NCBI GenBank assembly: GCA_943354905.1
Contig: CALRDL010000002.1
Location: 6,478 to 70,477, forward strand
Direction of reading: 5' to 3'
From: Candidatus Nomurabacteria bacterium
GTDB lineage: Bacteria > Patescibacteriota > Minisyncoccia > Phycocordibacterales > UBA9973
Length of the DNA: 64,000 bases
This document shows, piece after piece, positions 2,528 through 57,532 of this stretch. Under the pieces are notes generated by a model. The model did no database searches, was not told the DNA's origin, and was given only the letters and a program-made list of their open reading frames with translations. Each line of letters starts with the position of its first letter. The stretch's first letter is position 1. The translations under genes were made by a program, and so were the position numbers.

Positions 2528-3514
2528 ATGGAAAATTTTTTACCAGATACAGCTCCAGTGTTATCTAAAAATAGTAGTAATTTGGAAAATAAAGAACAGG
2601 AATTTATTTATGAGTTAAGAGATGTTGAGGGCGGCGTCCGATGTAATATTAAAGTAACATTCATTAATGAAACTTTGCCTGAGTCTTTACAAGGCAGAAA
2701 TTGCAAGGTCTTGAAAAGAGTGTTGAGGATGTCTTTCGAGGGAGCTAAGTCAGTTGATATTTTTGCTTTATGTAAAAAATCTGAAGCAACTAAAGTTTTT
2801 TTTACTGATGATGATTACCGTTATGAACATACAACTGATGAAGTATTTATTCCTGAATTTAAAACCTTGATTGATTTATATATTGCCTTTCATGAAATTG
2901 GTCATGCTGTTCAGTACAAAGAAGATATATTTAAAAATGCATGCAGGCATGGAAAATTTTTAGATATTGAAAATTTTGCACCAGCTGTTTTGTTGGCGCG
3001 AGAGAAACGAGTTGCAATTCCTATGGCTGATGAATTCTTGAATGAACTTATGCAATACTCAGTTGAGTATAATAGATATTGTCAAAGAAATATAGATGGT
3101 TCTTTAACAGAAGATGACCATATAGGATGTGAAAGTGAAAATATAAAGTTTACAGATTTTTTAAAAGAACATGAAATTAAAGAAAGTTTAGTTTCATTGA
3201 TATCTTATGAGTTGCCAAGAAGTATCTTTGAGCGAGACGCTACATTAAGGGCAATGGTTTGGGTACGCAAGGCTTCACAAGAATTGCATATTTCTTTAAA
3301 TTTTAAAACTAAAAGAAGTGATGTTGTTGTTCTCGATGAGATGTCTAAAGAATTAACTAAATGCTTAGAAGAAGATGATGTTCCTGAAGAGGTACAGGAA
3401 GCTATTTTAAGAGTTTGTGGAATGGGAAATGTTGGAGTCAGAGAAGTGATGAACTTAGCGTTATTAACTCAAGAGTCTGATAAATCTGTTCATAAATTTT
3501 TTAATGATAAATAG
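2528..3514 (+). CDS. Hypothetical protein with an HExxH motif (possible zincin-like metallopeptidase)
   Basis: Only an FHEIGHAVQY motif is recognisable; there are no other family signatures. Confidence 0.3.
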   Translation: MENFLPDTAPVLSKNSSNLENKEQEFIYELRDVEGGVRCNIKVTFINETLPESLQGRNCKVLKRVLRMSFEGAKSVDIFALCKKSEATKVFFTDDDYRYEHTTDEVFIPEFKTLIDLYIAFHEIGHAVQYKEDIFKNACRHGKFLDIENFAPAVLLAREKRVAIPMADEFLNELMQYSVEYNRYCQRNIDGSLTEDDHIGCESENIKFTDFLKEHEIKESLVSLISYELPRSIFERDATLRAMVWVRKASQELHISLNFKTKRSDVVVLDEMSKELTKCLEEDDVPEEVQEAILRVCGMGNVGVREVMNLALLTQESDKSVHKFFNDK

Positions 3515-3586
3515 TTTTATAACAGAACTTACGCTCTCCCACAAAATAATACAAACATAATACCACATTTTTGTTAAATTTAGTTT

Positions 3587-3614
3587 GACAAAGTTTTTAC
3601 ATTGTATATACTGG
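3587..3614 (+). promoter_or_regulatory. Near-consensus sigma70-type promoter (TTGACA-N16-TATACT) upstream of the toxin-antitoxin pair
   Basis: The sequence tagtTTGACAaagtttttacattgtaTATACTgggtatt sits directly 5' of the 3602 ORF start. Confidence 0.4.
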
Positions 3615-3895
3615 GTATTATGAATACAATGATTACAATTCGGACAGATGCAGATTTAAAAAATCAAGCACAAAACCTTGCTGAAAGGTTAGGTATTTCT
3701 ATTTCTGCAATAGTAAATAATTCTTTAAGAGAATTTGTTCTTAATAAGAAAGTTGTTTTCGCTGAACCTTTGACTTTAAATATTGCTACAAGAAAGCGTT
3801 TAGATAAAATAATTAAAGAAATAGATAAGGGAAAAAATCTTTCTAAATCTTTTTATACAGCAAAAGATGCTATAGCACATCTGAAAAGTCTATAA
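3602..3895 (+). CDS. Type II antitoxin, DinJ/RelB-like (ribbon-helix-helix)
   Basis: The N-terminus ITIRTDADLKNQAQNLAERLGISISAIVNNSLREFV is RHH/DinJ-like. It lies immediately upstream of a RelE/YafQ-like toxin. Confidence 0.6.
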   Translation: MYILGIMNTMITIRTDADLKNQAQNLAERLGISISAIVNNSLREFVLNKKVVFAEPLTLNIATRKRLDKIIKEIDKGKNLSKSFYTAKDAIAHLKSL

Positions 3896-3901
3896 AATTA
3901 A

Positions 3902-4159
3902 ATGAAGATCAATTTTCATAAAAGTTTTGATAAGATGTTTGCGAAATTACCAAAATTTGTTAAAGAAAAGTTTTACATTAGACTTGAAATTTTCTCCCTC
4001 AATATCAATAATCCATTATTAAATATTCATCCACTAAAAGGTAAACGGAGAGGGCAATGGAGTATAAATATAACAGGGGATTGCAGAGCTTTATACATAG
4101 AGCAAGAAGATGGGGTGATTTTTTTAGAAATCGGCACGCATCCACAATTATATGAATAA
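3902..4159 (+). CDS. Type II toxin, RelE/YafQ (ParE superfamily) mRNA interferase
   Basis: 85 aa with HPLKGKRRGQWSINITGDCRALY, the conserved core of YafQ/RelE toxins. It sits 6 bp after the antitoxin gene. Confidence 0.65.
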   Translation: MKINFHKSFDKMFAKLPKFVKEKFYIRLEIFSLNINNPLLNIHPLKGKRRGQWSINITGDCRALYIEQEDGVIFLEIGTHPQLYE

Positions 4160-4365: not shown

Positions 4366-7131
4366 ATGGATAAATCTTTTTTAAAAGATATGCCTAAGTT
4401 TAAGACTCCTGAAGAGGAGCTGGATTATCTGCGTGCCCATGTCGCCAAGCGTGAAGAAGAACTCATCAAGATAGGGCATATAGAACACGCTAAAGACAAC
4501 GCTACCATAGATGTGATTGAAGAATACAAAGATGCTCCGATAGAAAATGTAATCGAGGAGAGTCATAGACTTGACTCGAAACAAACAGAAGGTATAGTGT
4601 TAGCTCTCAAGCCCGAGAGTCATGACATTATTATGGAAGAGCTTTTAGGGCTAGTCATTACGAAGGGCATAAAGAATGCTTTGTCGGTTGTAGAAAATAT
4701 GGATAGTCCTCATATAGAAGATGATTTTCATAGAATACTTATTCAATATTTAAAAACAGGGCAAATAAATTTTCAATTTAAAGAAGGGACACCAATGTAC
4801 AAATCTTTAAATATGACTTTGTTTGAGATCACTCTTCCACCGCCTACGGATGAAATAGACAAGTCGAAAGGTTTTAAAGAATTTATCGGGGCAATGGAAC
4901 AATTTTATGCAGGAATGCATTCTATTTCGCAAGGCAAAAATAACAAAGAAGAAAATTATTTTACACTCGAGATTGCCCTGAGCGATGAGAGTGATGAAGT
5001 CATAATCTACGCTAGTATTCCAAACAAACACATCACCCTTTTTGAAAAACAGATTTTAGCATTTTATCACAATGCCAAAGTTAGCGAAGTTCCGGATGAC
5101 TACAACATCTTCAACGAGCAAGGCGCATCCGTGGGTGCTTATGCATCTTTTGCTGAACGAGGAGTTATGCCGATCAAGACTTATGACAACATCGAACACG
5201 ATCCGATGAACACTATCTTAAATGTTTTTTCTAAATTAAAAACCAAAGGTGAGGGTGCGGGGATTCAGCTCGTGATAGCTCCTGCTGGAGATCAGTTTAT
5301 AAATGAATTTCACAAAATTTTAGATGATGTAAAGGATGGACTTTCTGTAAAAAATGCTTCTGATAATTTTTATAAATTCAATAGTGCTTTTATGAAGATA
5401 GGCAAAGAATTCATATTTGGAACAAAAAAAGCACCAGAAGAAAATAAGGAACGAAATATGAAGGGCAGGAGAGCTGTAGACGAAGGAGCAGTGGAGAAAA
5501 TAGGTAATAAGACAAAGAGCACGATCATGAAGGCAAATATTCGGGTGGTGGCTTCAGCCGAAACAAAATCTCGAGCAGAAGAGATCTTGAAAGAACTGGA
5601 ATCTTCTTTTCATCAATTTTCTGAACCTGCTAGCAATTCTTTCTTTTTCGAACAAGCTCATGGTAGCAATTTGAAAAAGTTTTTTCATGATTTCTCATAT
5701 CGTTCTTTTTCACCTGATAAAATATTGCCGATGAATTTGAAAGAACTTTCTTCAGTTTTTCATTTTCCAGTAGGCATAGGTAGCCAGCCCCAACTCAAAG
5801 AAGCAAAGGCTGGCATCGCTCCGGCACCACTTGAGATGGGCCACGATGGAGTAACTCTTGGCATAAATGATTATCGAGGTAAAAAAACAGAAGTAAAACT
5901 CGCTCGTGAAGACCGTATGCGACATTTTTATGTTATTGGTCAGACTGGTACTGGTAAAACAAATATAATGTTGAATATGATAACTCAAGATATTAAAAAT
6001 GGAGATGGATGTTGTTATATAGATCCACACGGGACAGATATTCAAACCATCCTTTCTCGTATTCCAAAAGAGCGTATCGATGATGTCATATACTTTGATC
6101 CAGCATATACTGCGCGTCCTATGGGGCTGAATATGCTCGAGTATGATCTAAGATATCCAGAACAAAAGACTTTTGTGGTCAATGAACTCATGGGTATTTT
6201 TAATAAACTTTTTGATATGAAAGCCGGAGGTGGAGCTATGTTTGAACAATATTTCAGAAATAGTGCTTTCTTGGTGATGGAAGATCCAGAATCTGGCTCG
6301 ACATTGCTCGAGATCACTCGAGTTCTCGCTGATAAAGAATTTCGTGATATGAAACTCCAGAAATGCAAGAATCCGATCATTAAACAATTTTGGGTTTCAG
6401 CCGAACAGACGACAGGGGATCAAAGTCTCGCCAACTTCGTGCCATACATTTCTTCAAAGTTCGATAACTTTATCAGCAATGACATCATGCGTCCGGTTGT
6501 TCTCCAGCAAAATTCTGTTTTTAATTTTAGAAAAATAATGGACGAAAAGAAAATTCTTTTGGTAAATCTTTCCAAGGGTCGTCTCGGGGATATCAATGCG
6601 AACTTGATCGGCTTAGTCCTTGTCGGCAAGATCCAGATGGCGGCGCTTTCTCGCGTTGATATGTTTGGGAAACATATGAATGATTTCTATTTATATATCG
6701 ACGAGTTTCAAAACGTTACCACTGATTCTATCGCTTCTATTTTATCTGAAGCACGCAAATATAGACTTTCGCTTAATATTGCTCATCAATACATCTCTCA
6801 GCTTGAAGACAATATTAAAAATGCAGTTTTTGGAAATGTCGGCTCGATCGCAGTATTTCGTGTTGGGACCGAAGATGCGACTTTTCTCGAGCCAAAATTT
6901 AAACCTCAATTTACTGCTTCTGATATTACTAAATTAGACAATTTCAATGCTTATATGAGTATGCTGATCAAAGGTCAACCGACTAAGCCGTTTAATATTG
7001 CGACCATCGCTCCAGAAAAGGGTAATCCCGAAATAGTAGATAATCTCAAAGAACTTTCGTATGTAAAATATGGTCGTGATCGAGCCGAAGTCGAAGCCGA
7101 AATCATGGCGAAGTATCAGACGATGGAGTAA
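4366..7131 (+). CDS. Large P-loop ATPase of the FtsK/HerA/TraG-VirD4 (DUF87/AAA_10-like) superfamily
   Basis: 921 aa. Walker A is HFYVIGQTGTGKTNIM at about aa 520 and Walker B is FYLYIDEFQNV. The ~500-aa N-terminal soluble region has no recognisable motif. Confidence 0.5.
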   Translation: MDKSFLKDMPKFKTPEEELDYLRAHVAKREEELIKIGHIEHAKDNATIDVIEEYKDAPIENVIEESHRLDSKQTEGIVLALKPESHDIIMEELLGLVITKGIKNALSVVENMDSPHIEDDFHRILIQYLKTGQINFQFKEGTPMYKSLNMTLFEITLPPPTDEIDKSKGFKEFIGAMEQFYAGMHSISQGKNNKEENYFTLEIALSDESDEVIIYASIPNKHITLFEKQILAFYHNAKVSEVPDDYNIFNEQGASVGAYASFAERGVMPIKTYDNIEHDPMNTILNVFSKLKTKGEGAGIQLVIAPAGDQFINEFHKILDDVKDGLSVKNASDNFYKFNSAFMKIGKEFIFGTKKAPEENKERNMKGRRAVDEGAVEKIGNKTKSTIMKANIRVVASAETKSRAEEILKELESSFHQFSEPASNSFFFEQAHGSNLKKFFHDFSYRSFSPDKILPMNLKELSSVFHFPVGIGSQPQLKEAKAGIAPAPLEMGHDGVTLGINDYRGKKTEVKLAREDRMRHFYVIGQTGTGKTNIMLNMITQDIKNGDGCCYIDPHGTDIQTILSRIPKERIDDVIYFDPAYTARPMGLNMLEYDLRYPEQKTFVVNELMGIFNKLFDMKAGGGAMFEQYFRNSAFLVMEDPESGSTLLEITRVLADKEFRDMKLQKCKNPIIKQFWVSAEQTTGDQSLANFVPYISSKFDNFISNDIMRPVVLQQNSVFNFRKIMDEKKILLVNLSKGRLGDINANLIGLVLVGKIQMAALSRVDMFGKHMNDFYLYIDEFQNVTTDSIASILSEARKYRLSLNIAHQYISQLEDNIKNAVFGNVGSIAVFRVGTEDATFLEPKFKPQFTASDITKLDNFNAYMSMLIKGQPTKPFNIATIAPEKGNPEIVDNLKELSYVKYGRDRAEVEAEIMAKYQTME

Positions 7132-7134
7132 TTT

Positions 7135-7710
7135 ATGGAAGAATTTGAGATAAAATTTTTAGAGGTGGATGTGCCTGCTTTAGAAAAGAAGCTTGTGGAA
7201 ATAGGCGCAGAAAAAGTGGGGGAGTTTGACTATCTTAGAAAGATTTTTTATTTTAATGAAAATCATGTAGGTAGTGAAGATGGATGGATCAGAGTCCGTA
7301 CTGATGGCAAAGAAACTACTTTAACTTATAAAAAAAGTATAAAAGAAAAATTAGAAGATGGTACTGTAAAAAATACAGGTATGAATGAGATAGAGGTAAT
7401 AGTAGATGATTATGAAAAGACTTGTGAGCTTATAAATGCTATGGGGCTCATTTTGAATAAAACAGAAAAAAATAAAAGAATACGATACTCTAAAGGAGAT
7501 GTAGTTTTCGATATAGATTTCTGGCCATTTATTCCCACGTATTTAGAAATTGAATCTAGTTCATATGAAAAAACAAAAATTGCTGCGATAGAAATCGGTT
7601 TTGATCCAAATTTAGGAATTATAGGTAGTGCAGGTAGTGTTTATAAAAAATATGGTTTCAATATTAATGACTATTCTGCTATAACTTTTGAGGGTATGAT
7701 AAAGAAATAG
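7135..7710 (+). CDS. CYTH-domain protein (CyaB/triphosphate-tunnel metalloenzyme family), paralogue 1
   Basis: Starts EFEIKFLEV (the E-x-E-x-K signature) and continues ...GWIRVRTDG...TLTYK...YLEIE, which is the typical CYTH strand pattern. Confidence 0.6.
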   Translation: MEEFEIKFLEVDVPALEKKLVEIGAEKVGEFDYLRKIFYFNENHVGSEDGWIRVRTDGKETTLTYKKSIKEKLEDGTVKNTGMNEIEVIVDDYEKTCELINAMGLILNKTEKNKRIRYSKGDVVFDIDFWPFIPTYLEIESSSYEKTKIAAIEIGFDPNLGIIGSAGSVYKKYGFNINDYSAITFEGMIKK

Positions 7711-8344: not shown

Positions 8345-8899
8345 ATGTACGAAGTTGAAATTAAATCAAAACTAAAAGATCGAGAAACAGTTGTAGCCAA
8401 GCTAGAATCTTTGGGTTGTAAGTTTGGGCCGGAGCTTCATCAGGCTGACCACGTCTTTACACCCAAAGGAACATTTCTGCCGAGAAGTCCTTTGGGAAGC
8501 CCAGCTTTACGAGTGCGAAAACAAAATGATAAATATATTTTTACTTTAAAAATTTCTCAGTCTAATCATCAAGATTCTATTGAAAGGGAAATGGAAATTG
8601 GGGATGGCAAGATGATGATTGAAATCCTAGAACTCATGAAATGGAACAAAATGCCAATCGTAGAGAAGCGAAGAATTAAAACAAATTTTAAAGATATGGA
8701 AATAGTATTAGATACTGTCGAAAATCTAGGTGAATTTATTGAAGCCGAAAAAATAGTTACCGAAGAAAGCAGGGAAGCTAGAGCTAAAATTCAAGAAGAA
8801 TTGTTGGATTTTTTAGAGACAGTCGGAATTCCAAGAGAAGATCAGATTATAGATGGGAAATATGATATTATGCTTTATGAGAAGTTGAATGGAAGATAA
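8345..8899 (+). CDS. CYTH-domain protein, paralogue 2
   Basis: Starts YEVEIKSKL and continues ...ALRVRKQNDKYIFTLK...FIEAE, the CYTH pattern. Confidence 0.6.
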   Translation: MYEVEIKSKLKDRETVVAKLESLGCKFGPELHQADHVFTPKGTFLPRSPLGSPALRVRKQNDKYIFTLKISQSNHQDSIEREMEIGDGKMMIEILELMKWNKMPIVEKRRIKTNFKDMEIVLDTVENLGEFIEAEKIVTEESREARAKIQEELLDFLETVGIPREDQIIDGKYDIMLYEKLNGR

Positions 8900-9452
8900 A
8901 ATTATGTCTATTAAAATAACTTATTTTGTACATGGGACTACTACGGATAATGAGAAACATATTTCTTCAGGCTGGTATGATGTGGAACTTTCGGAGCTGG
9001 GAGTACAGCAATCCAAAGAATTACGGGAACAGGTAGAAGATGAAGTTTTTGATGTGGTTTTTTGTTCGGATTTAAAGAGAGCAGTAGATTCTGCACATTT
9101 TGTTTTCGAAGGAATATATCCGATTATTCTTGATGCTCGACTTCGCGAATGTAATTACGGAAAATTAAACGCCTCACCAAATGCTGTTGTCGAACCGTTG
9201 TGCGAAGACGAATGTATCTATAATAAATTCCCCGACGGGGAGAGTTATGAAGATGTAAAAGCTCGCATGGCGGACTTTCTGGAATTTCTAAAAAAGAATT
9301 ATGATGGAAAACATATAGCCATCGTAGCTCACAAAGCTCCACAGCTTTCTCTCGATGTATTATTAAAAGGTTATACATGGGAAGAAGCTTTAGCAAAAGA
9401 TTGGCGTAAGACAAAATCATGGCAACCAGGGTGGGAATACCAATTAAATTAA
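8889..9452 (+). CDS. Histidine phosphatase family protein (phosphoglycerate-mutase-like)
   Basis: The N-terminus ITYFVHGTTTDN is an RHG-type catalytic motif variant, and the overall size fits the family. Confidence 0.55.
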   Translation: MEDKIMSIKITYFVHGTTTDNEKHISSGWYDVELSELGVQQSKELREQVEDEVFDVVFCSDLKRAVDSAHFVFEGIYPIILDARLRECNYGKLNASPNAVVEPLCEDECIYNKFPDGESYEDVKARMADFLEFLKKNYDGKHIAIVAHKAPQLSLDVLLKGYTWEEALAKDWRKTKSWQPGWEYQLN

Positions 9453-9475
9453 CAGCCAGTGCCTTAGACTCTGTC
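9453..9475. repeat. REP-like 23-bp element, left copy (CAGCCAGTGCCTTAGACTCTGTC)
   Basis: The reverse complement recurs at 10161-10184 (one mismatch), and a third inverted copy lies inside the transposase ORF at 9669-9689. Confidence 0.6.
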
Positions 9476-9497
9476 TATATTATGCTATACTTAACTA

Positions 9498-10172
9498 ATG
9501 AGAAAACAACCAATAGTAACAGGTGAATATTATCACGTATATAATCGTGGCGTAGATAAAAGGGATATTTTTAATGATAATAATGATTTATACCGTTTTG
9601 TTGAGAGTATTTACGAATTTAATAAAATTGAAACAATAGGAAGCATAAGAGATGCGAGAAAGAATAAAACAGAGTCTAAGGCACTGGCTATGTTGTCTTT
9701 TGAGCCATTGGTTGCGATCGTTGCGTATTGTATTAATCCAAATCATTTTCATTTTGTGTTAAAACAACTAGCAGATGGTGGAATATCTAAGTTTATGCAA
9801 AAACTCCAAGGAGGATACACTTATTTTTTTAATGTGAAACATTCTCGAACGGGTTCTCTTTTTCAAGGTACTTTTAAATCACATCACATGAGTAGCGAAA
9901 ATTACTTCAATAAAATCCTCGGGTATGTAAATAAAAATTATCAAGTTCATAGTATTCCCAAAAAAAAGATGAGTTTTATTTTAGCTGGTGATTATGAGTA
10001 TGAGAATAATAATTTCAAAATTATCTCAAAGATAGAAGGTAAAAAATTTTTAGTGATTTTTGATGGACCCAAAAGTTTTAAAAAACATTGTGATGAGATG
10101 GTGGATATTGTAAGACAAGAAAGAGGTAAACTTTCGCTATTAGAAGAAGATAATTTACCAGACAGAGTCTAA
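9498..10172 (+). mobile_element. IS200/IS605-family Y1 (HuH) transposase, RAYT-like (REP-associated tyrosine transposase)
   Basis: Carries the YHVYNRG motif, the HuH motif HFHFVL, and the distal G.LFQG.F...H region typical of Y1 transposases/RAYTs. It is flanked by inverted REP-like 23-mers. Confidence 0.6.
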
Positions 10173-10184
10173 GGCTCTGGCTGG
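10161..10184. repeat. REP-like element, right (inverted) copy
   Basis: GACAGAGTCTAAGGCTCTGGCTGG is the reverse complement of the 9453-9475 element. It contains the transposase stop codon. Confidence 0.6.
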
Positions 10185-10231
10185 AGGGTTTTTGATGGTA
10201 AGTATGATATTATGCTTTATGAGAAGTTGAA

Positions 10232-10873
10232 TTGGAAATAAATTTTATGGAAAACCTAACAAATCTTTTTAAAATAATGCAGTTGACTCGTTCGATGCCT
10301 CAATACGGCTACGTAGTGGCAGGGATTAAGCAGAATGATTTAAGTAATTTGGCTGAGCATCATTATCTGGTGACATTCATTGCCTGGCAAATAGCTCTAT
10401 CTCTGAAAGAAAAAGGAGCGAATTTAGATATATTGAAAGTTTTAGAAATATCAATGGTGCATGATGTTGGGGAATTATTTGGTGGAGATGTCTCTTTTCA
10501 TTACGGCCGAGCACATAAAGTTGCAAGACAGAAAGCTAAGGAATTTGAAAAAGAAAATGTTCTATTTTTGAGTAGATTTTTTAATAAGCCAGAAAAGTTT
10601 TTGGAATTAAATTCTTTAGAGCGTGAAGAAGTAACTTCCGATGAAGCTATCATATCACGTTTTGCTGATCTCATAGAATGCATCTATTACAAAATGACTT
10701 TAGATAAAGTTACTCCAAAGGATATCGAGGAGACGGTGGAAGCTTTAAAGGCTAGAGCACTAGAAGCAAAAGATGAAATCACTAAAAAAGAATTATTAAA
10801 TTTTCTGGATGCTTTCTCTGGAGTTCTGGATGGAAAAAGCGTGCAAGATATTATTTGGGATAATAAAGATTAA
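10232..10873 (+). CDS. HD-domain phosphohydrolase (YfbR-like 5'-deoxynucleotidase family)
   Basis: The HD motif context is AEHHYLV...MVHDVGELFGGD, and the size (213 aa) fits. Confidence 0.55.
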   Translation: MEINFMENLTNLFKIMQLTRSMPQYGYVVAGIKQNDLSNLAEHHYLVTFIAWQIALSLKEKGANLDILKVLEISMVHDVGELFGGDVSFHYGRAHKVARQKAKEFEKENVLFLSRFFNKPEKFLELNSLEREEVTSDEAIISRFADLIECIYYKMTLDKVTPKDIEETVEALKARALEAKDEITKKELLNFLDAFSGVLDGKSVQDIIWDNKD

Positions 10874-10877
10874 TTTT

Positions 10878-11416
10878 ATGCAAGAAATTGAAACAAAAGT
10901 TTTGGAGGTTAATGTAGAAGAAATAAAAGTAAAGTTAAAAGACTTAGGGGCAAAAGAGACTCAAGACACTCGCCTTGTTGTTGATTGGTATTGTCCAAAG
11001 GGGATAGCCATACCGAACATCCTTGGTATCTTCGTGTGCGGACCACAACCGACGGCAAGAGTGAGGTGAGTTGGAAATCTTTACCGAAGATAGTAGGCAA
11101 TACTCGACATTCGGATGAAGTGAATATAAATGTTTCTGATGCAGTGATGGCCGGGAAACTTTTAAAAAATATTGGACTTGAAAATTATGCTCATCAAGAG
11201 AAAGATAGAATTTCTTTTACACTCAAGGATTGGAATTTTGACTTAGATCAATATCCGGGCATGCCAGCATATCTCGAGATCGAGGGGACTAGTCACGAAC
11301 ATGTGCAAGAGGCTATAAAAATTTTGAATTTAGAAAATCATACAAGCATCGGTGATGGTGAGAGAGTTTTGATAGAAAAGAAATACGGGCTTGATTGGTA
11401 CAGTATGCGTTTTTAG
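10878..11416 (+). pseudogene. CYTH-domain protein, paralogue 3, interrupted by a frameshift near 10,990-11,010
   Basis: The CYTH N-terminus MQEIETKVLEV... is in one frame (ORF 10809..11069). The continuation ...WYLRVRTTTDGKSEVSWKS...YLEIEG is in another frame (ORF 10985..11416). Confidence 0.5.
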
Positions 11417-17252: not shown

Positions 17253-17647
17253 GAGTGGAACTGACGAGAATTGAACTCGTGTGCAATAGGTTTTTGTAAA
17301 GAAGTCTACATACATAGCATGCTTTTCTGTTTAAATTAAAATATTCTTAAGCAAGCGAAATATATTTTAATCGAGCTCTAAGTTTTTGTGAAATGCTCGA
17401 GCAAACATTTCCTTATCCCGATAATATTACACCTCTACTCATATATCGGAAGTCTATAAGAGAGACGCCAGCTCAGGCTTACGCGAAAGCTGGAGCGAAA
17501 GCAAAATCATTCATACCGAAGTATGGTGACGCTTTAGCCTTAGAAGTCAATTTTGCAATTAACATTTAGACAAATTTTTACGAGATTATGTCTATGCTCG
17601 ATACGCATCTTTGACAAATAGGCCTACTGTCTATGCCTTGCAGTCCC
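17253..17647 (-). ncRNA. ssrA: Candidate tmRNA (ssrA)
   Basis: On the minus strand the 5' GGGACTG pairs with the 3' CAGTTCC to give a 7-bp acceptor stem with a G3:U70 wobble, the Ala identity element. The T-arm is ACGAG-TTCAATT-CTCGT followed directly by CAGTTCC-A. The gene lies immediately downstream of smpB. An internal ORF ends ...NDFAFAPAFA-TAA, a Mycoplasma-like tag ending. Terminator-like hairpins follow at 17174-17205 and 17228-17248. Confidence 0.55.
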
Positions 17648-27880: not shown

Positions 27881-28489
27881 TTAAATTCTAGAATACGAAA
27901 CTCCTTTTCCTGTTTTTCCGACTTGTTTAATTTTATTTTCCTTTCCCAAGATATTTAGATATCGGGTTGCTGTTGCGTCAGACACATGCAAATACTTTTC
28001 GACTTCGTCGTTAGTTATATTTTTCTTTTTCAAAAACAAAGTCATTATTTTTTCCAGTTTCTTTCTTTTGCCGATTTGGACTTTATCTAGGAACTTTTTC
28101 CATAAATCTTTTTGGGAGAGTTTTGTTTTTACTGGTTCAGGTCTGGATTCAGGAATTGGTTTTATTTCAGTTTGTTTAACTTCTTCTTTTACTGGTTCAG
28201 GTTTTACTTCGGGAACTTCTATCTCTACTCGCTCGCCTAACGGCTCGCTCGTAGAGTTCAACGGCTCAAATACCGGTGTTTGAGCCGTTGGGGTTTCAGT
28301 TACCTTAGGAGCTTCGTTCTCCATGGGGATTATCTCAGGGGGGATAGCTTGCTCTGGCTCGGCTTTCGCCTCGCCTAAAGCTTCGCTTGCGATAGAAGTA
28401 GGTTCAGGACTAGAAATCGGCTCCTGCGAAGCCTCGGGTTTAGGTTGAGTTATTGTCGTATCGCTTGAAGTTTCATCTACCATACTCAT
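27881..28489 (-). CDS. DNA-binding protein: Pro/Glu-rich low-complexity N-terminus plus C-terminal winged-HTH
   Basis: The C-terminus is ...NDEVEKYLHVSDATATRYLNILGKENKIKQVGKTGKGVSY. Confidence 0.35.
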   Translation of the reverse strand: MSMVDETSSDTTITQPKPEASQEPISSPEPTSIASEALGEAKAEPEQAIPPEIIPMENEAPKVTETPTAQTPVFEPLNSTSEPLGERVEIEVPEVKPEPVKEEVKQTEIKPIPESRPEPVKTKLSQKDLWKKFLDKVQIGKRKKLEKIMTLFLKKKNITNDEVEKYLHVSDATATRYLNILGKENKIKQVGKTGKGVSYSRI

Positions 28490-57459: not shown

Positions 57460-57532
57460 GCCGTTATAGCTCAGGTAGTAGAGCACGTCATTGGTAATGA
57501 CGAGGTCAACAGTGCAAATCTGTTTAACGGCT
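57460..57532 (+). tRNA. tRNA-Thr(GGT)
   Basis: Acceptor GCCGTTA/TAACGGC, D-arm GCTCAGGTAGTAGAGC, anticodon stem-loop CGTCA-TTGGTAA-TGACG, T-arm AACAG-TGCAAAT-CTGTT (an atypical T-loop). Confidence 0.55.

Follow-up and report, generated by a model that had tools for sequence, protein, structure and literature searches.

RAYTs and their REPs are the best-studied case of a transposase turned into a long-term, vertically inherited genome resident. In E. coli, TnpA(REP) binds and cuts REPs. Units in which RAYT / TnpA(REP) genes are flanked by cognate REPs are known as REPtrons (Nunvar 2010, PMC2817692; Ton-Hoang 2012; Di Nocera 2013, PMC3733652; Quentin 2018, PMC6006769), and have been reported also in species that lack REP families. 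TnpA(Y1) subclass 2.4 (Bertels group 4) has "double-foot" long REPs, which also occur in frame inside the tnpA(REP) gene (PMC6006769); in-frame REPs inside tnpA(REP) genes are thus already known. Subclass 2.1 genes were reported without REP-like structures, and the TIRYT set, which falls largely into 2.1, has flanking inverted repeats mostly of the consensus GGGG[AT][CG]A[CG] (PMC6006769). The same study lists an NHFH / FQ signature for part of subclass 2.1 (PMC6006769).

Here, we describe a RAYT-like locus in a stretch of 64,000 nucleotides of Candidatus Nomurabacteria DNA (the window), in which a Y1/HUH gene is accompanied by three copies of one palindrome. The components of this module are:

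9453..9476, minus strand: upstream copy of the palindrome (U), degenerate and in reverse complement to the internal and 3' copies
9483..9491, plus strand: extended -10 box TGcTATACT, ending 6 nt before the ATG of the RAYT gene
9498..10172, plus strand: RAYT-like Y1/HUH gene, 224 aa, Pfam Y1_Tnp
9668..9690, plus strand: internal palindrome copy (I), in frame, encoding K-T-E-S-K-A-L-A (residues 58-65)
10158..10184, plus strand: 3' palindrome copy (D), which forms a stable hairpin whose loop is the stop codon TAA (10170-10172)

Both motifs by which the earlier note had recognized a Y1/HUH transposase, YHVYNRG and HFHFVL, are found in the 224-aa open reading frame at 9498-10172, and residues 72-146 match Y1_Tnp (PF01797) at 30.2 bits (E 5e-7), above the gathering threshold of 23. 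The HUH motif is formed by H83-F-H85, and the catalytic tyrosine is Y143. Among 21 family members, N82-H83-F-H85 and Y143 do not vary; they align with the NHFH/NHIH motifs and the tyrosine of YVEANP/YIELNP in two annotated class-2 proteins. The full class-2 motif Y-x-x-x-N-P is not present: the protein reads Y143-V-N-K-N147-Y148, in which the asparagine is kept and the proline is replaced by an invariant tyrosine. Its score against the NCBIfam RAYT model (NF047646) is 28.7 bits, below the cutoff of 80, while proteobacterial comparators reach 75-77. Homology searches retrieved 3222 homologues, all named ones of which come from Patescibacteria. We assign 9498-10172 to a large, Patescibacteria-specific family of RAYT-like Y1/HUH proteins of class 2, putative domesticated relatives of IS200 transposases.

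The 23-mer CAGCCAGTGCCTTAGACTCTGTC occurs three times in the window. It lies on the plus strand at 9453-9475, and its reverse complement recurs at 10161-10183 with one mismatch and at 9668-9690 with two, the 21-nt core of the latter (9669-9689) matching at 21 of 21 positions. A repeat finder recovered the same inverted pairs (24 nt at 96% and 21 nt at 100% identity). Allowing up to three mismatches, the 64-kb window contains no fourth copy, and no match appeared in 100 shuffles. Both the inverted pair flanking the gene, whose right-hand copy had previously been placed at 10161-10184, and the third inverted copy inside the reading frame (9669-9689) had been described in the earlier note and proved correct; the feature that it overlooked is that the element is itself a degenerate palindrome.

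The three copies occupy distinct positions. U abuts the stop codon of the upstream histidine phosphatase gene and sits at the -35 position of the RAYT promoter. I falls within a family-specific insertion that separates helix alpha-A from the HUH strand and adds ~25 aa relative to proteobacterial class-2 Y1 proteins. D folds as CCAG-A-CAGAGTC/TAA/GGCTCTG-G-CTGG, with -9.7 kcal/mol as DNA (z = -4.5), and U and I in the window have no significant fold alone (z -0.5 to -0.9). In the window, conservation concerns how the copies match or complement one another rather than whether each of them folds. An A to G change in U between the window and the homologous locus L004 is matched in I by a T to C change, and all three window copies depart from the perfect palindrome of the orthologous locus L010 at identical positions of one arm. 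The GT[AG]G guide tetranucleotide is absent from the 5' foot of the window element, which reads CCAGACAG.

Comparison of 67 non-redundant homologues (42-79% identity) revealed three fixed palindrome sites in the family: 15-55 nt upstream of the ATG (U, -55..-15), in frame at codons ~57-70 (I, +168..+210), and on or just after the stop codon (D). Hairpins of ~9 bp or more were found at U in 46 of 64 loci, at I in 39 of 67, and at D in 50 of 65, compared with 6.4% of 2531 control windows. One 14-mer is common to all three sites in 46 of 61 loci and to the upstream and stop-codon sites in 53 of 61, and the stop codon is the loop triplet of D in 18/53 loci. The copies are homogeneous within loci (median identity 0.92) and divergent between them (0.44). 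Their stems covary: 91.7% of cells are paired versus 60.6% in shuffles, a percentage that is inflated by the choice of sites with a hairpin finder, a choice of which the positional and three-copy evidence is independent. The covariation score is 0.806 versus 0.227 in shuffles and at most 0.13 in slid controls, and double changes were seen in 11 of 12 stem pairs. The layout of palindromes and gene is a conserved family architecture and not a product of chance, which supports the REP-RAYT-type arrangement suggested by the earlier note.

Several features vary within this architecture. The relative orientation of the copies is mixed across loci, and the variable peptide encoded by I covaries with the DNA element; two paralogues of one genome, which are 75% identical, differ in their palindrome-encoded peptides. 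A second in-frame copy is present at about +460 in L069 and L080. Of the foot, only [AG]G is conserved in alignment A2, with G9 invariant, and a few distant loci (L060, L064, L073) carry a true GTAG.

The promoter is conserved as well. Across 65 loci, the -10 columns read T-15 G-14 n T-12 A-11 T-10 A-9 a/c-8 T-7; TATAAT is matched at five or more of six positions in 50 of these loci, and in 34 the end of the hexamer is exactly 6 nt from the start, against a control rate of 20/1892. A conserved TGnTATAAT box 6 nt before the ATG implies that the mRNA is leaderless, a prediction that would place U outside the gene's own transcript. This bears on a model in which the palindromes act in RNA and the enzyme is uninvolved, serving as 5' and 3' stabilizing or terminating hairpins together with an intragenic attenuator or RNase III site, or as a U-I fold-back that inhibits read-through transcripts. 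Consistent with it, D lies on the stop codon and is followed 5 nt later by TTTTT, U and I of the window are perfectly complementary over 21 nt while neither folds alone, their changes between the window and L004 are compensatory, and internal stem mismatches on the sense strand are more often G.T (20) than A.C (10). We nevertheless regard this model as highly doubtful. It conflicts with the predicted position of U upstream of the transcript, it has no need for three hairpins per locus that share one sequence and differ between paralogues, and copies are also found in intergenic clusters and in other reading frames. Moreover, no intrinsic terminator was predicted at D, G.T predominates only weakly, the orientation is mixed, and no Rfam family matched.

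The genes and repeats around the module are:

8345..8899, plus strand: CYTH2 gene (class IV adenylate cyclase / CYTH family; Pfam CYTH 1e-16; NCBIfam cyaB 75 bits)
8847..8903, plus strand: direct repeat copy 1, made up of the CYTH2 tail with its stop codon and of the spacer that precedes the ATG of His-phosphatase
8904..9452, plus strand: histidine phosphatase gene (Pfam His_Phos_1 1.6e-29)
10189..10245, plus strand: direct repeat copy 2, in which the 16 terminal codons and the stop of a CYTH2-type gene survive in frame as a relic, followed by the junction that leads to the ATG of HD_3
10247..10873, plus strand: HD_3/YfbR-like phosphohydrolase gene (Pfam HD_3)
10878..11416, plus strand: CYTH3 gene, in two parts owing to a single-nucleotide deletion in the G run 11000-11003

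CYTH2 has orthologues at the syntenic locus in L093, L101, L103 and L104. The split of CYTH3 (reading frames 10809-11069 and 10985-11416) recurs in the gene calls of an independent assembly, and its orthologues in L093 and L101 are intact at 180 aa. HD_3 and the CYTH gene that follows it (CYTH3 in the window) form a conserved pair in L093 and L098. At the same locus, L093 has a His-phosphatase gene, 18 nt, and then the HD_3 orthologue, with neither RAYT nor CYTH tail; L101 and L103 also lack the RAYT gene there, so that the comparison with relatives proposed in the earlier note did yield syntenic loci without it. Since His-phosphatase and HD_3 adjoin each other in L093 without a RAYT, we judge the His-phosphatase to be a resident of a variable nucleotide-hydrolase cassette rather than cargo of the RAYT. 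The CYTH2-CYTH3 interval is a fast-rearranging cassette of such genes (HIT, HD, His-phosphatase), and deletions within it have left gene-end relics in L103 and L013. L004 contains two tandem CYTH2 paralogues.

The adjacency of His-phosphatase and RAYT recurs in L004, L010, L013 and L046. In the first three of these, the RAYT gene follows the His-phosphatase gene and encodes proteins 71-77% identical to that of the window; a shared position at such limited identity indicates long vertical residence, and inheritance of the module at this locus (window, L004, L010, L013) appears to have been mostly vertical. The closest homologues (78-79%) are found in a different context, sigma70-like / RAYT / DUF8128.

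The search for a REP family proposed in the earlier note gave no sign of one. The other ~63 kb of the window contain 0 extra palindrome copies, which leaves room for at most a dispersed family of low copy number (roughly <35 copies), and among 185,579 species-representative genomes the sole exact match to the 21-mer is the 3' end of a RAYT orthologue in one Nomurabacteria MAG. Most relatives have no extra copies within +-4 kb, and extra copies or intergenic clusters were detected in L006, L054, L074 and L083. These, the second in-frame copies of L069 and L080, a homologue in L063 that is truncated exactly at site I and the two paralogues with differing palindrome peptides resemble the behavior of REPs. 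A second copy of the RAYT gene was not found in the 64-kb window, a tnpB-like reading frame does not adjoin it, and a search of 2.9 million viral contigs found nothing. These results weigh on the possibility that the 732-bp unit is an active insertion sequence of the IS200/IS605 type, with U and D as its end hairpins, that inserted fairly recently between His-phosphatase and HD_3. The unit is indeed compact, with a hairpin at each end, a promoter beside the left end and a stop codon in the right end, and the three syntenic sites without RAYT, the different context of the closest homologues and the extra palindrome copies of some relatives all agree with mobility. Still, we consider an active element distinctly improbable: in addition to the missing second copy, tnpB and viral matches, paralogues within one genome are just 75% identical, the position behind His-phosphatase is constant in L004, L010 and L013 at 71-77% identity, and the tyrosine motif, Y-x3-N, belongs to class 2, IS200 having Y-x3-Q instead (Table 1 of PMC6006769).

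The module is followed by the second copy of a direct repeat. The earlier note had observed that ~50 bp of the CYTH 3' end recur here; on alignment, the repeat is real and slightly longer, with 57 ungapped nt (8847-8903 / 10189-10245) at 86% identity and an identical core of 33 nt in the repeat search. Both copies extend to the ATG of the next gene, and copy 1 is formed by the last 51 nt of CYTH2 and the junction. Copy 2 begins 4 nt past the D hairpin and abuts the RAYT 3' palindrome. It reads in frame as a CYTH tail, FDGKYDIMLYEKLNWK and a stop, plus the usual stop-to-ATG junction, and both its translation and its junction (AAATAAATTTTATG) agree with those found where CYTH2 meets the next gene in L004 and L104.

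A target-site duplication was considered and rejected, as the repeat is 57 nt long, only 86% identical and composed of a gene tail and junction, and as copy 1 is parted from U by the whole His-phosphatase gene, so that the copies do not abut both ends of the unit. To our knowledge, Y1 transposases (IS200/IS605) make no such duplications, and the earlier proposal that an insertion had duplicated its target does not hold. The repeat is most likely the scar of an ordinary rearrangement, by recombination or deletion. A CYTH2-type gene would once have lain directly upstream of HD_3 and would then have been truncated at the RAYT 3' palindrome, either as a tandem CYTH2 paralogue that was mostly deleted or through recombination of a CYTH2-tail/His-phosphatase/RAYT segment into the locus; recombination between tandem CYTH paralogues, which the earlier note gave as its alternative, is viable. 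L103, the closest relative, has similar gene-end relics, namely the first 10 codons of His-phosphatase and a CYTH3 tail. The uninterrupted CYTH-HD junction that had been suggested as a check, with CYTH2 directly before HD_3, was found in none of the relatives examined (L093, L098, L101, L103 and L104 among them).

A different history of the repeat is that a block of ~1.3 kb, His-phosphatase plus RAYT, moved as a unit into a CYTH-HD junction, the repeat marking the insertion either as a target duplication or, more plausibly, as the homology through which a circular or linear CYTH-tail/His-phosphatase/RAYT fragment integrated. The repeat brackets exactly these two genes, copy 2 starts 4 nt after D and keeps a native-looking CYTH-stop-to-ATG junction before HD_3, and the pair is recurrent (L004, L010, L013, L046); HD_3 is 84% identical to its L093 orthologue, compared with 61-65% for flanking core genes, which hints at a separate history. 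We consider this block insertion rather unlikely. A repeat of 57 nt is far too long for a target duplication, which Y1 transposases do not make, the palindromes bound RAYT alone (9453-10184), the His-phosphatase of L093 is resident and adjoins HD_3 without a RAYT, and none of the relatives examined places CYTH2 immediately upstream of HD_3. The relic is explained equally well if a tandem CYTH2 paralogue, of which L004 has two, was deleted, given the relic-leaving deletions in this interval of L103 and L013. The unit is a 732-bp REPtron-like module (9453-10184) and not the 1.3-kb transposon that the earlier note had proposed.

Taken together, we favor as reasonably probable that 9453-10184 is a self-contained, REPtron-like RAYT module, vertically inherited and equipped with its own hairpins, next to a rearrangement scar of 57 nt. 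The module consists of four parts: U, a cognate palindrome located at -35; a promoter with an extended -10 box, from which a leaderless mRNA would start at the ATG; the 224-aa reading frame, with the in-frame copy I in a presumed surface insertion between alpha-A and the HUH strand; and copy D, whose loop supplies the stop codon. By analogy with E. coli TnpA(REP) and its REPs, we infer that the palindromes act as single-strand-DNA hairpins that are bound and cut by the encoded HUH enzyme. U could then double as an operator for autoregulation, and the copies may be kept alike by copy-correction, through gene conversion or enzyme-mediated cleavage and rejoining, as well as by co-evolution with the specificity of the enzyme.

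A further-reaching variant, which we think unlikely, holds that the three palindromes of its own gene are the principal, perhaps the only, substrates of the enzyme, which would be a domesticated HUH nuclease of streamlined Patescibacteria genomes, with no dispersed REP population. Self-directed cutting and rejoining would then keep the three copies identical (concerted evolution) and autoregulate transcription at U, and deletion or inversion of the U-I promoter/N-terminal segment would provide a self-editing on/off switch. The module would in that case be a minimal self-maintaining replicator or regulator, not a REP mobilizer. A switch of this kind is hinted at by the homologue in L063, which is truncated exactly at site I.

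The family adds a very large, previously undescribed RAYT-like branch with thousands of members across Paceibacteria/Nomurabacteria. Few of its palindromes lie away from the gene in the sampled DNA, and the copies occupy functionally loaded sites: promoter, coding loop and stop codon. This makes it a compact, testable system for the co-evolution of HUH enzyme and hairpin, for regulation or editing of the enzyme's own gene, and for the upkeep of three identical short copies. In annotation, the module should not be read as an active insertion sequence, nor the neighboring His-phosphatase as its cargo, and the CYTH2-CYTH3 interval should be seen as a hot spot for swap and decay of nucleotide-hydrolase genes (HIT, HD, His-phosphatase).

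Among known systems, the module resembles IS200 (subclass 1.1 of IS200/IS605) in its size of ~0.7 kb, its single Y1 gene, the hairpin at each end, a structure near the left end beside promoter or start, and the lack of a target duplication. In IS200 the motif is Y-x3-Q, each genome carries several copies that are nearly identical, and a hairpin in the 5'-UTR hides the ribosome-binding site, whereas the module has a class-2 motif, single diverged copies, a predicted leaderless mRNA and a palindrome reused inside the reading frame. The closest annotated relatives belong to subclass 2.1 / TIRYT (Bertels group 1). These Skermanella and Rhodospirillum plasmid "transposases" share 24-28% identity across the core and carry the motifs NH[FI]H and YIELNP/YVEANP. 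Members of this subclass are of similar length (~235-250 aa) and share a C-terminal extension, but this C-terminal domain does not align with that of the CPR family, which, unlike them, has perfect palindromes at three sites.

Subclass 2.4 is similar in having an in-frame cognate palindrome in a variation-tolerant region of the enzyme's own gene, long palindromes whose foot is paired into the stem (for example TGTAGACGTC-G-GACGTCTACA in distant members), and flanking repeats of low copy number. Its internal copies lie between HuH and Y, whereas the main internal copy here precedes the HuH motif, between alpha-A and beta-2, at one fixed site in a family-specific insertion, and a copy after the tyrosine is found in few loci only. 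Of its motifs, NH[IFV]H / WQ / YIxNNP, the first fits the NHFH of our protein, which continues with FQ (LFQG) and YVNKNY; the hosts here are Patescibacteria, which were absent from the sample of that study (PMC6006769). With REPtrons in general, the module shares a low-copy, vertically inherited Y1/HUH gene, flanking locus-specific palindrome copies that can reach into the gene at its 5' or 3' end, and a palindrome type of its own for each paralogue. It departs from them in that no dispersed REP/REPIN population was seen (0 extra copies in about 63 kb), that the window element has no GT[AG]G foot, and that the protein, far below the NCBIfam RAYT cutoff, has FQ / Y-x3-N-Y in place of the W[EQ] / Y-x3-N-P of typical RAYTs. 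Finally, the family differs from REPtrons in its fixed three-part architecture with a conserved promoter for a predicted leaderless mRNA.

The RAYT-like Y1/HUH gene of the window (hereafter RAYT) is accompanied by three copies of one 23-mer, U upstream of the ATG, I inside the ORF and D at the stop codon. In the following list, genes come from Pfam matches and ORF calls, and 23-mer copies from direct sequence matching.

7135-7710, CYTH gene
between this gene and 8345-8899, NDK gene
8345-8899, CYTH gene (CYTH2)
8847-8903 and 10189-10245, copies 1 and 2 of a direct repeat (repeat finder)
8904-9452, His_Phos_1 gene (His-phosphatase)
9453-9475, 23-mer CAGCCAGTGCCTTAGACTCTGTC (U)
9483-9491, extended -10 box TGcTATACT, with the ATG at 9498
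9498-10172, + strand, Y1_Tnp gene (RAYT), 224 aa
9668-9690, reverse-complement copy of the 23-mer with 2 mismatches, 21/21 over 9669-9689 (I)
10161-10183, reverse-complement copy of the 23-mer with 1 mismatch (D)
10247-10873, HD_3 gene
10878-11416, third CYTH gene (CYTH3), split by a frameshift

The 23-mer with two inverted copies flanking and inside the RAYT ORF, described in the earlier note, was recovered at the positions listed, and a repeat finder yields the same inverted pairs. No further copy was found in the 64-kb window with up to three mismatches allowed, and shuffles gave 0 matches. The locus is also found in two independent metagenome assemblies. The 23-mer is a decayed palindrome, not a plain terminal inverted repeat. 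As single-stranded DNA, D folds (10158-10184; -9.7 kcal/mol, z = -4.5) with the stop codon TAA as its loop. U and I have in common one substitution that breaks the stem of each, and neither folds above background; despite this, they are perfectly complementary to one another.

Detectable homologues of the RAYT protein number at least 3222; the best is 79% identical, and all named ones belong to Patescibacteria, which places the organism in this phylum (Nomurabacteria/Paceibacteria). An alignment of 21 homologues showed that their most variable stretch is the I-encoded peptide K-T-E-S-K-A-L, which varies jointly with the C-terminus: TESKAL occurs with proteins ending in PDRV and APKAL with those ending in PDSA, and some homologues end in PTESKALAG. 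A single DNA element translated at two sites, in a different frame at each, would produce such joint change. We fetched 80 metagenome loci encoding homologues 42-74% identical, and nearly all have the same three-site layout. The element is locus-specific, 20-30 nt long and usually a perfect palindrome with a stem of 9-18 bp and a loop of 3-5 nt (for example, CAGATAGCGCC-TAA-GGCGCTATCTG, ATTCGGACGT-TGG-ACGTCCGAAT and TTTGGAGGC-CTT-GCCTCCAAA). It lies 15-55 nt 5' of the ATG (U), at +168 to +210 within the ORF (I), and at the stop codon or just 3' of it (D). Among 67 non-redundant genes, on which the family counts are based, hairpins of at least about 9 bp are present at U in 46 of 64, at I in 39 of 67 and at D in 50 of 65, compared with 6.4% of 2531 control windows. 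A 14-mer is common to U, I and D in 46 of 61 loci, and the median identity of copies is 0.92 within a locus versus 0.44 between loci (0.76 in the closest subfamily).

The stems covary. In 46 stop-codon hairpins, 91.7% of cells are paired versus 60.6% in shuffles, a percentage inflated by the use of a hairpin finder to locate the hairpins; the fixed positions and the agreement of the three copies do not depend on that step. The covariation score is 0.806 versus 0.227 in shuffles and at most 0.13 with the partner column slid, and both sides change in 11 of 12 stem pairs. Comparison with individual relatives shows joint evolution of the copies, not separate selection of each for folding: between the window and locus L004, an A to G change in U is matched by T to C in I, and relative to the perfect palindrome CCAGCCAGTGCC-TTA-GGCACTGGCTGG of the orthologous locus L010, all three window copies deviate in one arm at identical positions. 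Inversion of U with respect to I and D is only a trend and does not define the layout (inverted versus direct, 16 to 10 for U-I and 18 to 14 for U-D; I-D favours direct, 17 to 10).

The protein passes Pfam Y1_Tnp, with N82-H83-F-H85 and Y143 invariant, and scores 28.7 bits with the NCBIfam RAYT model, far under its cutoff of 80. Its motifs are NHFH, LFQG and Y-V-N-K-N-Y. The closest annotated relatives are "transposases" from proteobacterial plasmids, with 24-28% identity in the core; they carry NH[FI]H, W[EQ] and YIELNP, the motifs of subclass 2.1 (Quentin et al.). Aligned with two annotated class-2 proteins, the Patescibacteria proteins have ~25 residues inserted after helix alpha-A and before the HUH strand, and the palindrome-encoded peptide sits within this insertion. 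The insertion was placed by sequence alignment because structure prediction was too poor: the AlphaFold2 model, built with 21 close homologues, reached a pLDDT of 54.6, with residues 55-67 (the palindrome-encoded peptide) below 50, and Foldseek against the PDB returned nothing at E <= 0.001. Profile searching of the PDB sequences did not retrieve any Y1 protein, and the viral contigs searched yielded nothing related to RAYT.

Aligning the upstream regions revealed an extended -10 box, which in almost every locus lies in the stretch from U to the ATG. Its column profile in 65 loci is T-15, G-14, n, T-12, A-11, T-10, A-9, a/c-8, T-7; TATAAT is matched at five or more of six positions in 50 of these loci, and in 34 the hexamer ends exactly 6 nt 5' of the start codon. 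A TGnTATAAT-like box occurs at about 1% (20/1892) of random positions. A generic sigma-70 scan, which demands a -35 hexamer, did not list the RAYT promoter. In the window, the spacing between box and ATG leaves no space for a Shine-Dalgarno sequence, and together with the conserved position of the box this leads us to infer a leaderless RAYT mRNA starting at or beside the ATG. The predicted start would place U at the -35 position, outside RAYT's own transcript. This kind of promoter seems to be widely used by these organisms, since in locus L103 an unrelated 94-aa ORF has TGgTATAAT-N6-ATG with equal spacing.

These observations make it less likely that the palindromes act in RNA only. The predicted transcription start lies 3' of U, and hairpins acting as RNA would not need to be alike inside each locus yet different from paralogue to paralogue. 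An unbiased recount of stem mismatches (20 G.T versus 10 A.C) is too weak to separate RNA from DNA. Over the region, Rfam gave no family at E <= 1 besides a chance lncRNA match, and D was not called in a scan for intrinsic terminators.

The features established here are the three-site architecture and its conservation, stem covariation, the promoter, and an internal palindrome placed in a family-specific protein insertion; how they may work together is suggested by analogy. The palindromes would be single-strand hairpins recognised by the encoded enzyme, as in the biochemistry of E. coli TnpA(REP) and IS200/IS605. Terminal repeats allow autoregulation in many insertion sequences, and U at the -35 position would permit it here. 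The three copies might be homogenised through copy-correction and co-evolution with the enzyme.

RAYT is present once in the window. At the syntenic locus (DUF8128 ... beta-CASP), His-phosphatase is followed by RAYT in L004, L010 and L013, and this conserved position of proteins only 71-77% identical to that of the window points to long vertical residence. There is also turnover: RAYT is absent from the relatives L093, L101 and L103, which provide the comparison proposed in the earlier note. The nearest homologues occupy another conserved locus (sigma70-like, RAYT, DUF8128), and one Nomurabacteria genome has two paralogues, 75% identical, whose palindrome peptides differ. This low-copy, diverged and mostly vertical pattern is that of RAYTs rather than of insertion sequences (PMC5581495). 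A DUF8128/TrwB-like ATPase gene lies near RAYT in both contexts of the family's closest members (913 aa, upstream at 4366-7131 in the window; 468-473 aa, directly downstream in the P0002/P0003 loci, L085/L089), which may reflect linkage or chance.

The palindromes of some relatives resemble REPs in their behaviour. L006 carries a BIME-like cluster, with five copies and a repeated flank in a single 770-nt intergenic spacer (3228-3976); L054 has three extra copies upstream (2930-3850), L074 one 1.7 kb downstream (6393) and L083 one inside another ORF, 3.1 kb upstream (859). L069 and L080 have a second in-frame palindrome at about +460. In L063 (1500-2260), the 5' part of a RAYT homologue is missing exactly up to I, leaving residues ~69-221, with the 3' palindrome intact and a solo palindrome 250 nt upstream, which suggests that I is a breakpoint hot spot. 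In about 63 kb of the window's genome, no dispersed copy was seen. If this genome has the size usual for these bacteria, about 0.7-1 Mb, the result argues against a typical REP population and is compatible with a family of fewer than about 35 copies.

The CYTH2-CYTH3 interval around RAYT is a variable cassette.

Gene order in the interval
Window: CYTH2, His-phosphatase, RAYT, (CYTH tail relic), HD_3, CYTH3
L093: CYTH2, HDa, HDb, His-phosphatase, HD_3, CYTH3
L101: CYTH2, HIT, CYTH3
L013: His-phosphatase (frameshifted), RAYT, CYTH3 fragment
L004: CYTH, CYTH2, His-phosphatase, RAYT, HIT
L103: CYTH2, 10 codons of His-phosphatase, unrelated ORF, CYTH3 tail relic

In L093, 18 nt separate His-phosphatase from the HD_3 orthologue without RAYT, so His-phosphatase is a resident gene, not cargo. 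Of the REP-RAYT-REP insertion proposed earlier, the cognate palindromes around RAYT stand, and a transposed 1.3-kb block is not supported. Relative to L093, the window has 794 extra bases, made up of the 732-bp RAYT module (9453-10184), 4 nt and a CYTH tail with its junction. The direct duplication of the CYTH 3' end is real (57 nt, 86% identity), and target-site duplication, one of the origins suggested earlier, is excluded. Copy 2 translates in frame as FDGKYDIMLYEKLNWK followed by a stop and ends with AAATAAATTTTATG, the same as the junction of CYTH2 with the next gene in L004 and L104 (tails compared by eye on printed sequences). The in-frame tail and native junction indicate that a CYTH2-type gene probably once lay directly 5' of HD_3 and was truncated where RAYT's 3' palindrome now ends it. 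Copy 2 could have arisen by two routes. Most of a tandem CYTH2 paralogue may have been deleted, for which L004 offers a tandem CYTH pair and L103 shows that deletions here leave such relics; alternatively, a CYTH-tail/His-phosphatase/RAYT segment could have been brought in by recombination. A survey of HD_3 and CYTH2 homologues found no relative with the uninterrupted CYTH-HD junction, CYTH2 directly before HD_3; the upstream neighbours of HD_3 differ (His-phosphatase, RpoC, TyrRS). Genes may be exchanged within the cassette, as hinted by the identity to L093 of HD_3 (84%; His-phosphatase 78%) versus the core genes DUF8128 (65%) and beta-CASP (61%); phylogenetically closer relatives have more distant His-phosphatases (68-75%).

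The interval decays through deletions that leave gene-end relics. L103, the closest relative by DUF8128 (94%), retains at 3300-3780 only the first codons of His-phosphatase, and a relic of the CYTH3 tail, DWFNMHF-stop, is left. The split of CYTH3 in the window is a 1-nt deletion in a G run (11000-11003), called identically in the independent assembly L001, and the orthologues in L093 and L101 are unbroken; this marks either slippage or a pseudogene.

Elsewhere in the window, a GC-rich stretch without a long ORF (27520-27880) stands out in this low-GC genome (about 27-46% G+C across 6-13 kb). Two strong hairpins lie within it (27578-27610 and 27632-27663). No Rfam family matches it even at E <= 1, and it may encode a structured RNA. 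The ORF 27881-28489 (- strand) contains a related palindrome arm, AACGGCTCAAAT..TTGAGCCGTT, at 28258-28290. Known RNA genes in the window are:

17253-17647, - strand, tmRNA gene (Rfam, 109 bits)
20587-20660 and 57460-57532, two tRNA genes

Taken together, the earlier observation is confirmed and its interpretation partly supported. Earlier work describes REPtrons, also where the genome has no REP family, and REPs that extend over the ends of the gene (PMC3733652); in subclass 2.4, tnpA(REP) genes with REPs inserted in frame are known (PMC6006769). Within the literature library searched, we found no paper connecting RAYTs to Patescibacteria. What sets the RAYT-like family apart from the described systems is its host phylum, its motifs and its score below the RAYT model cutoff, together with the constant placement of the internal copy ahead of the HUH motif and the conserved, predicted leaderless promoter. 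The local event, a scar beside a resident RAYT module, is ordinary; the RAYT/REPtron type itself is already known, and the conserved three-palindrome architecture is what is new in this family.
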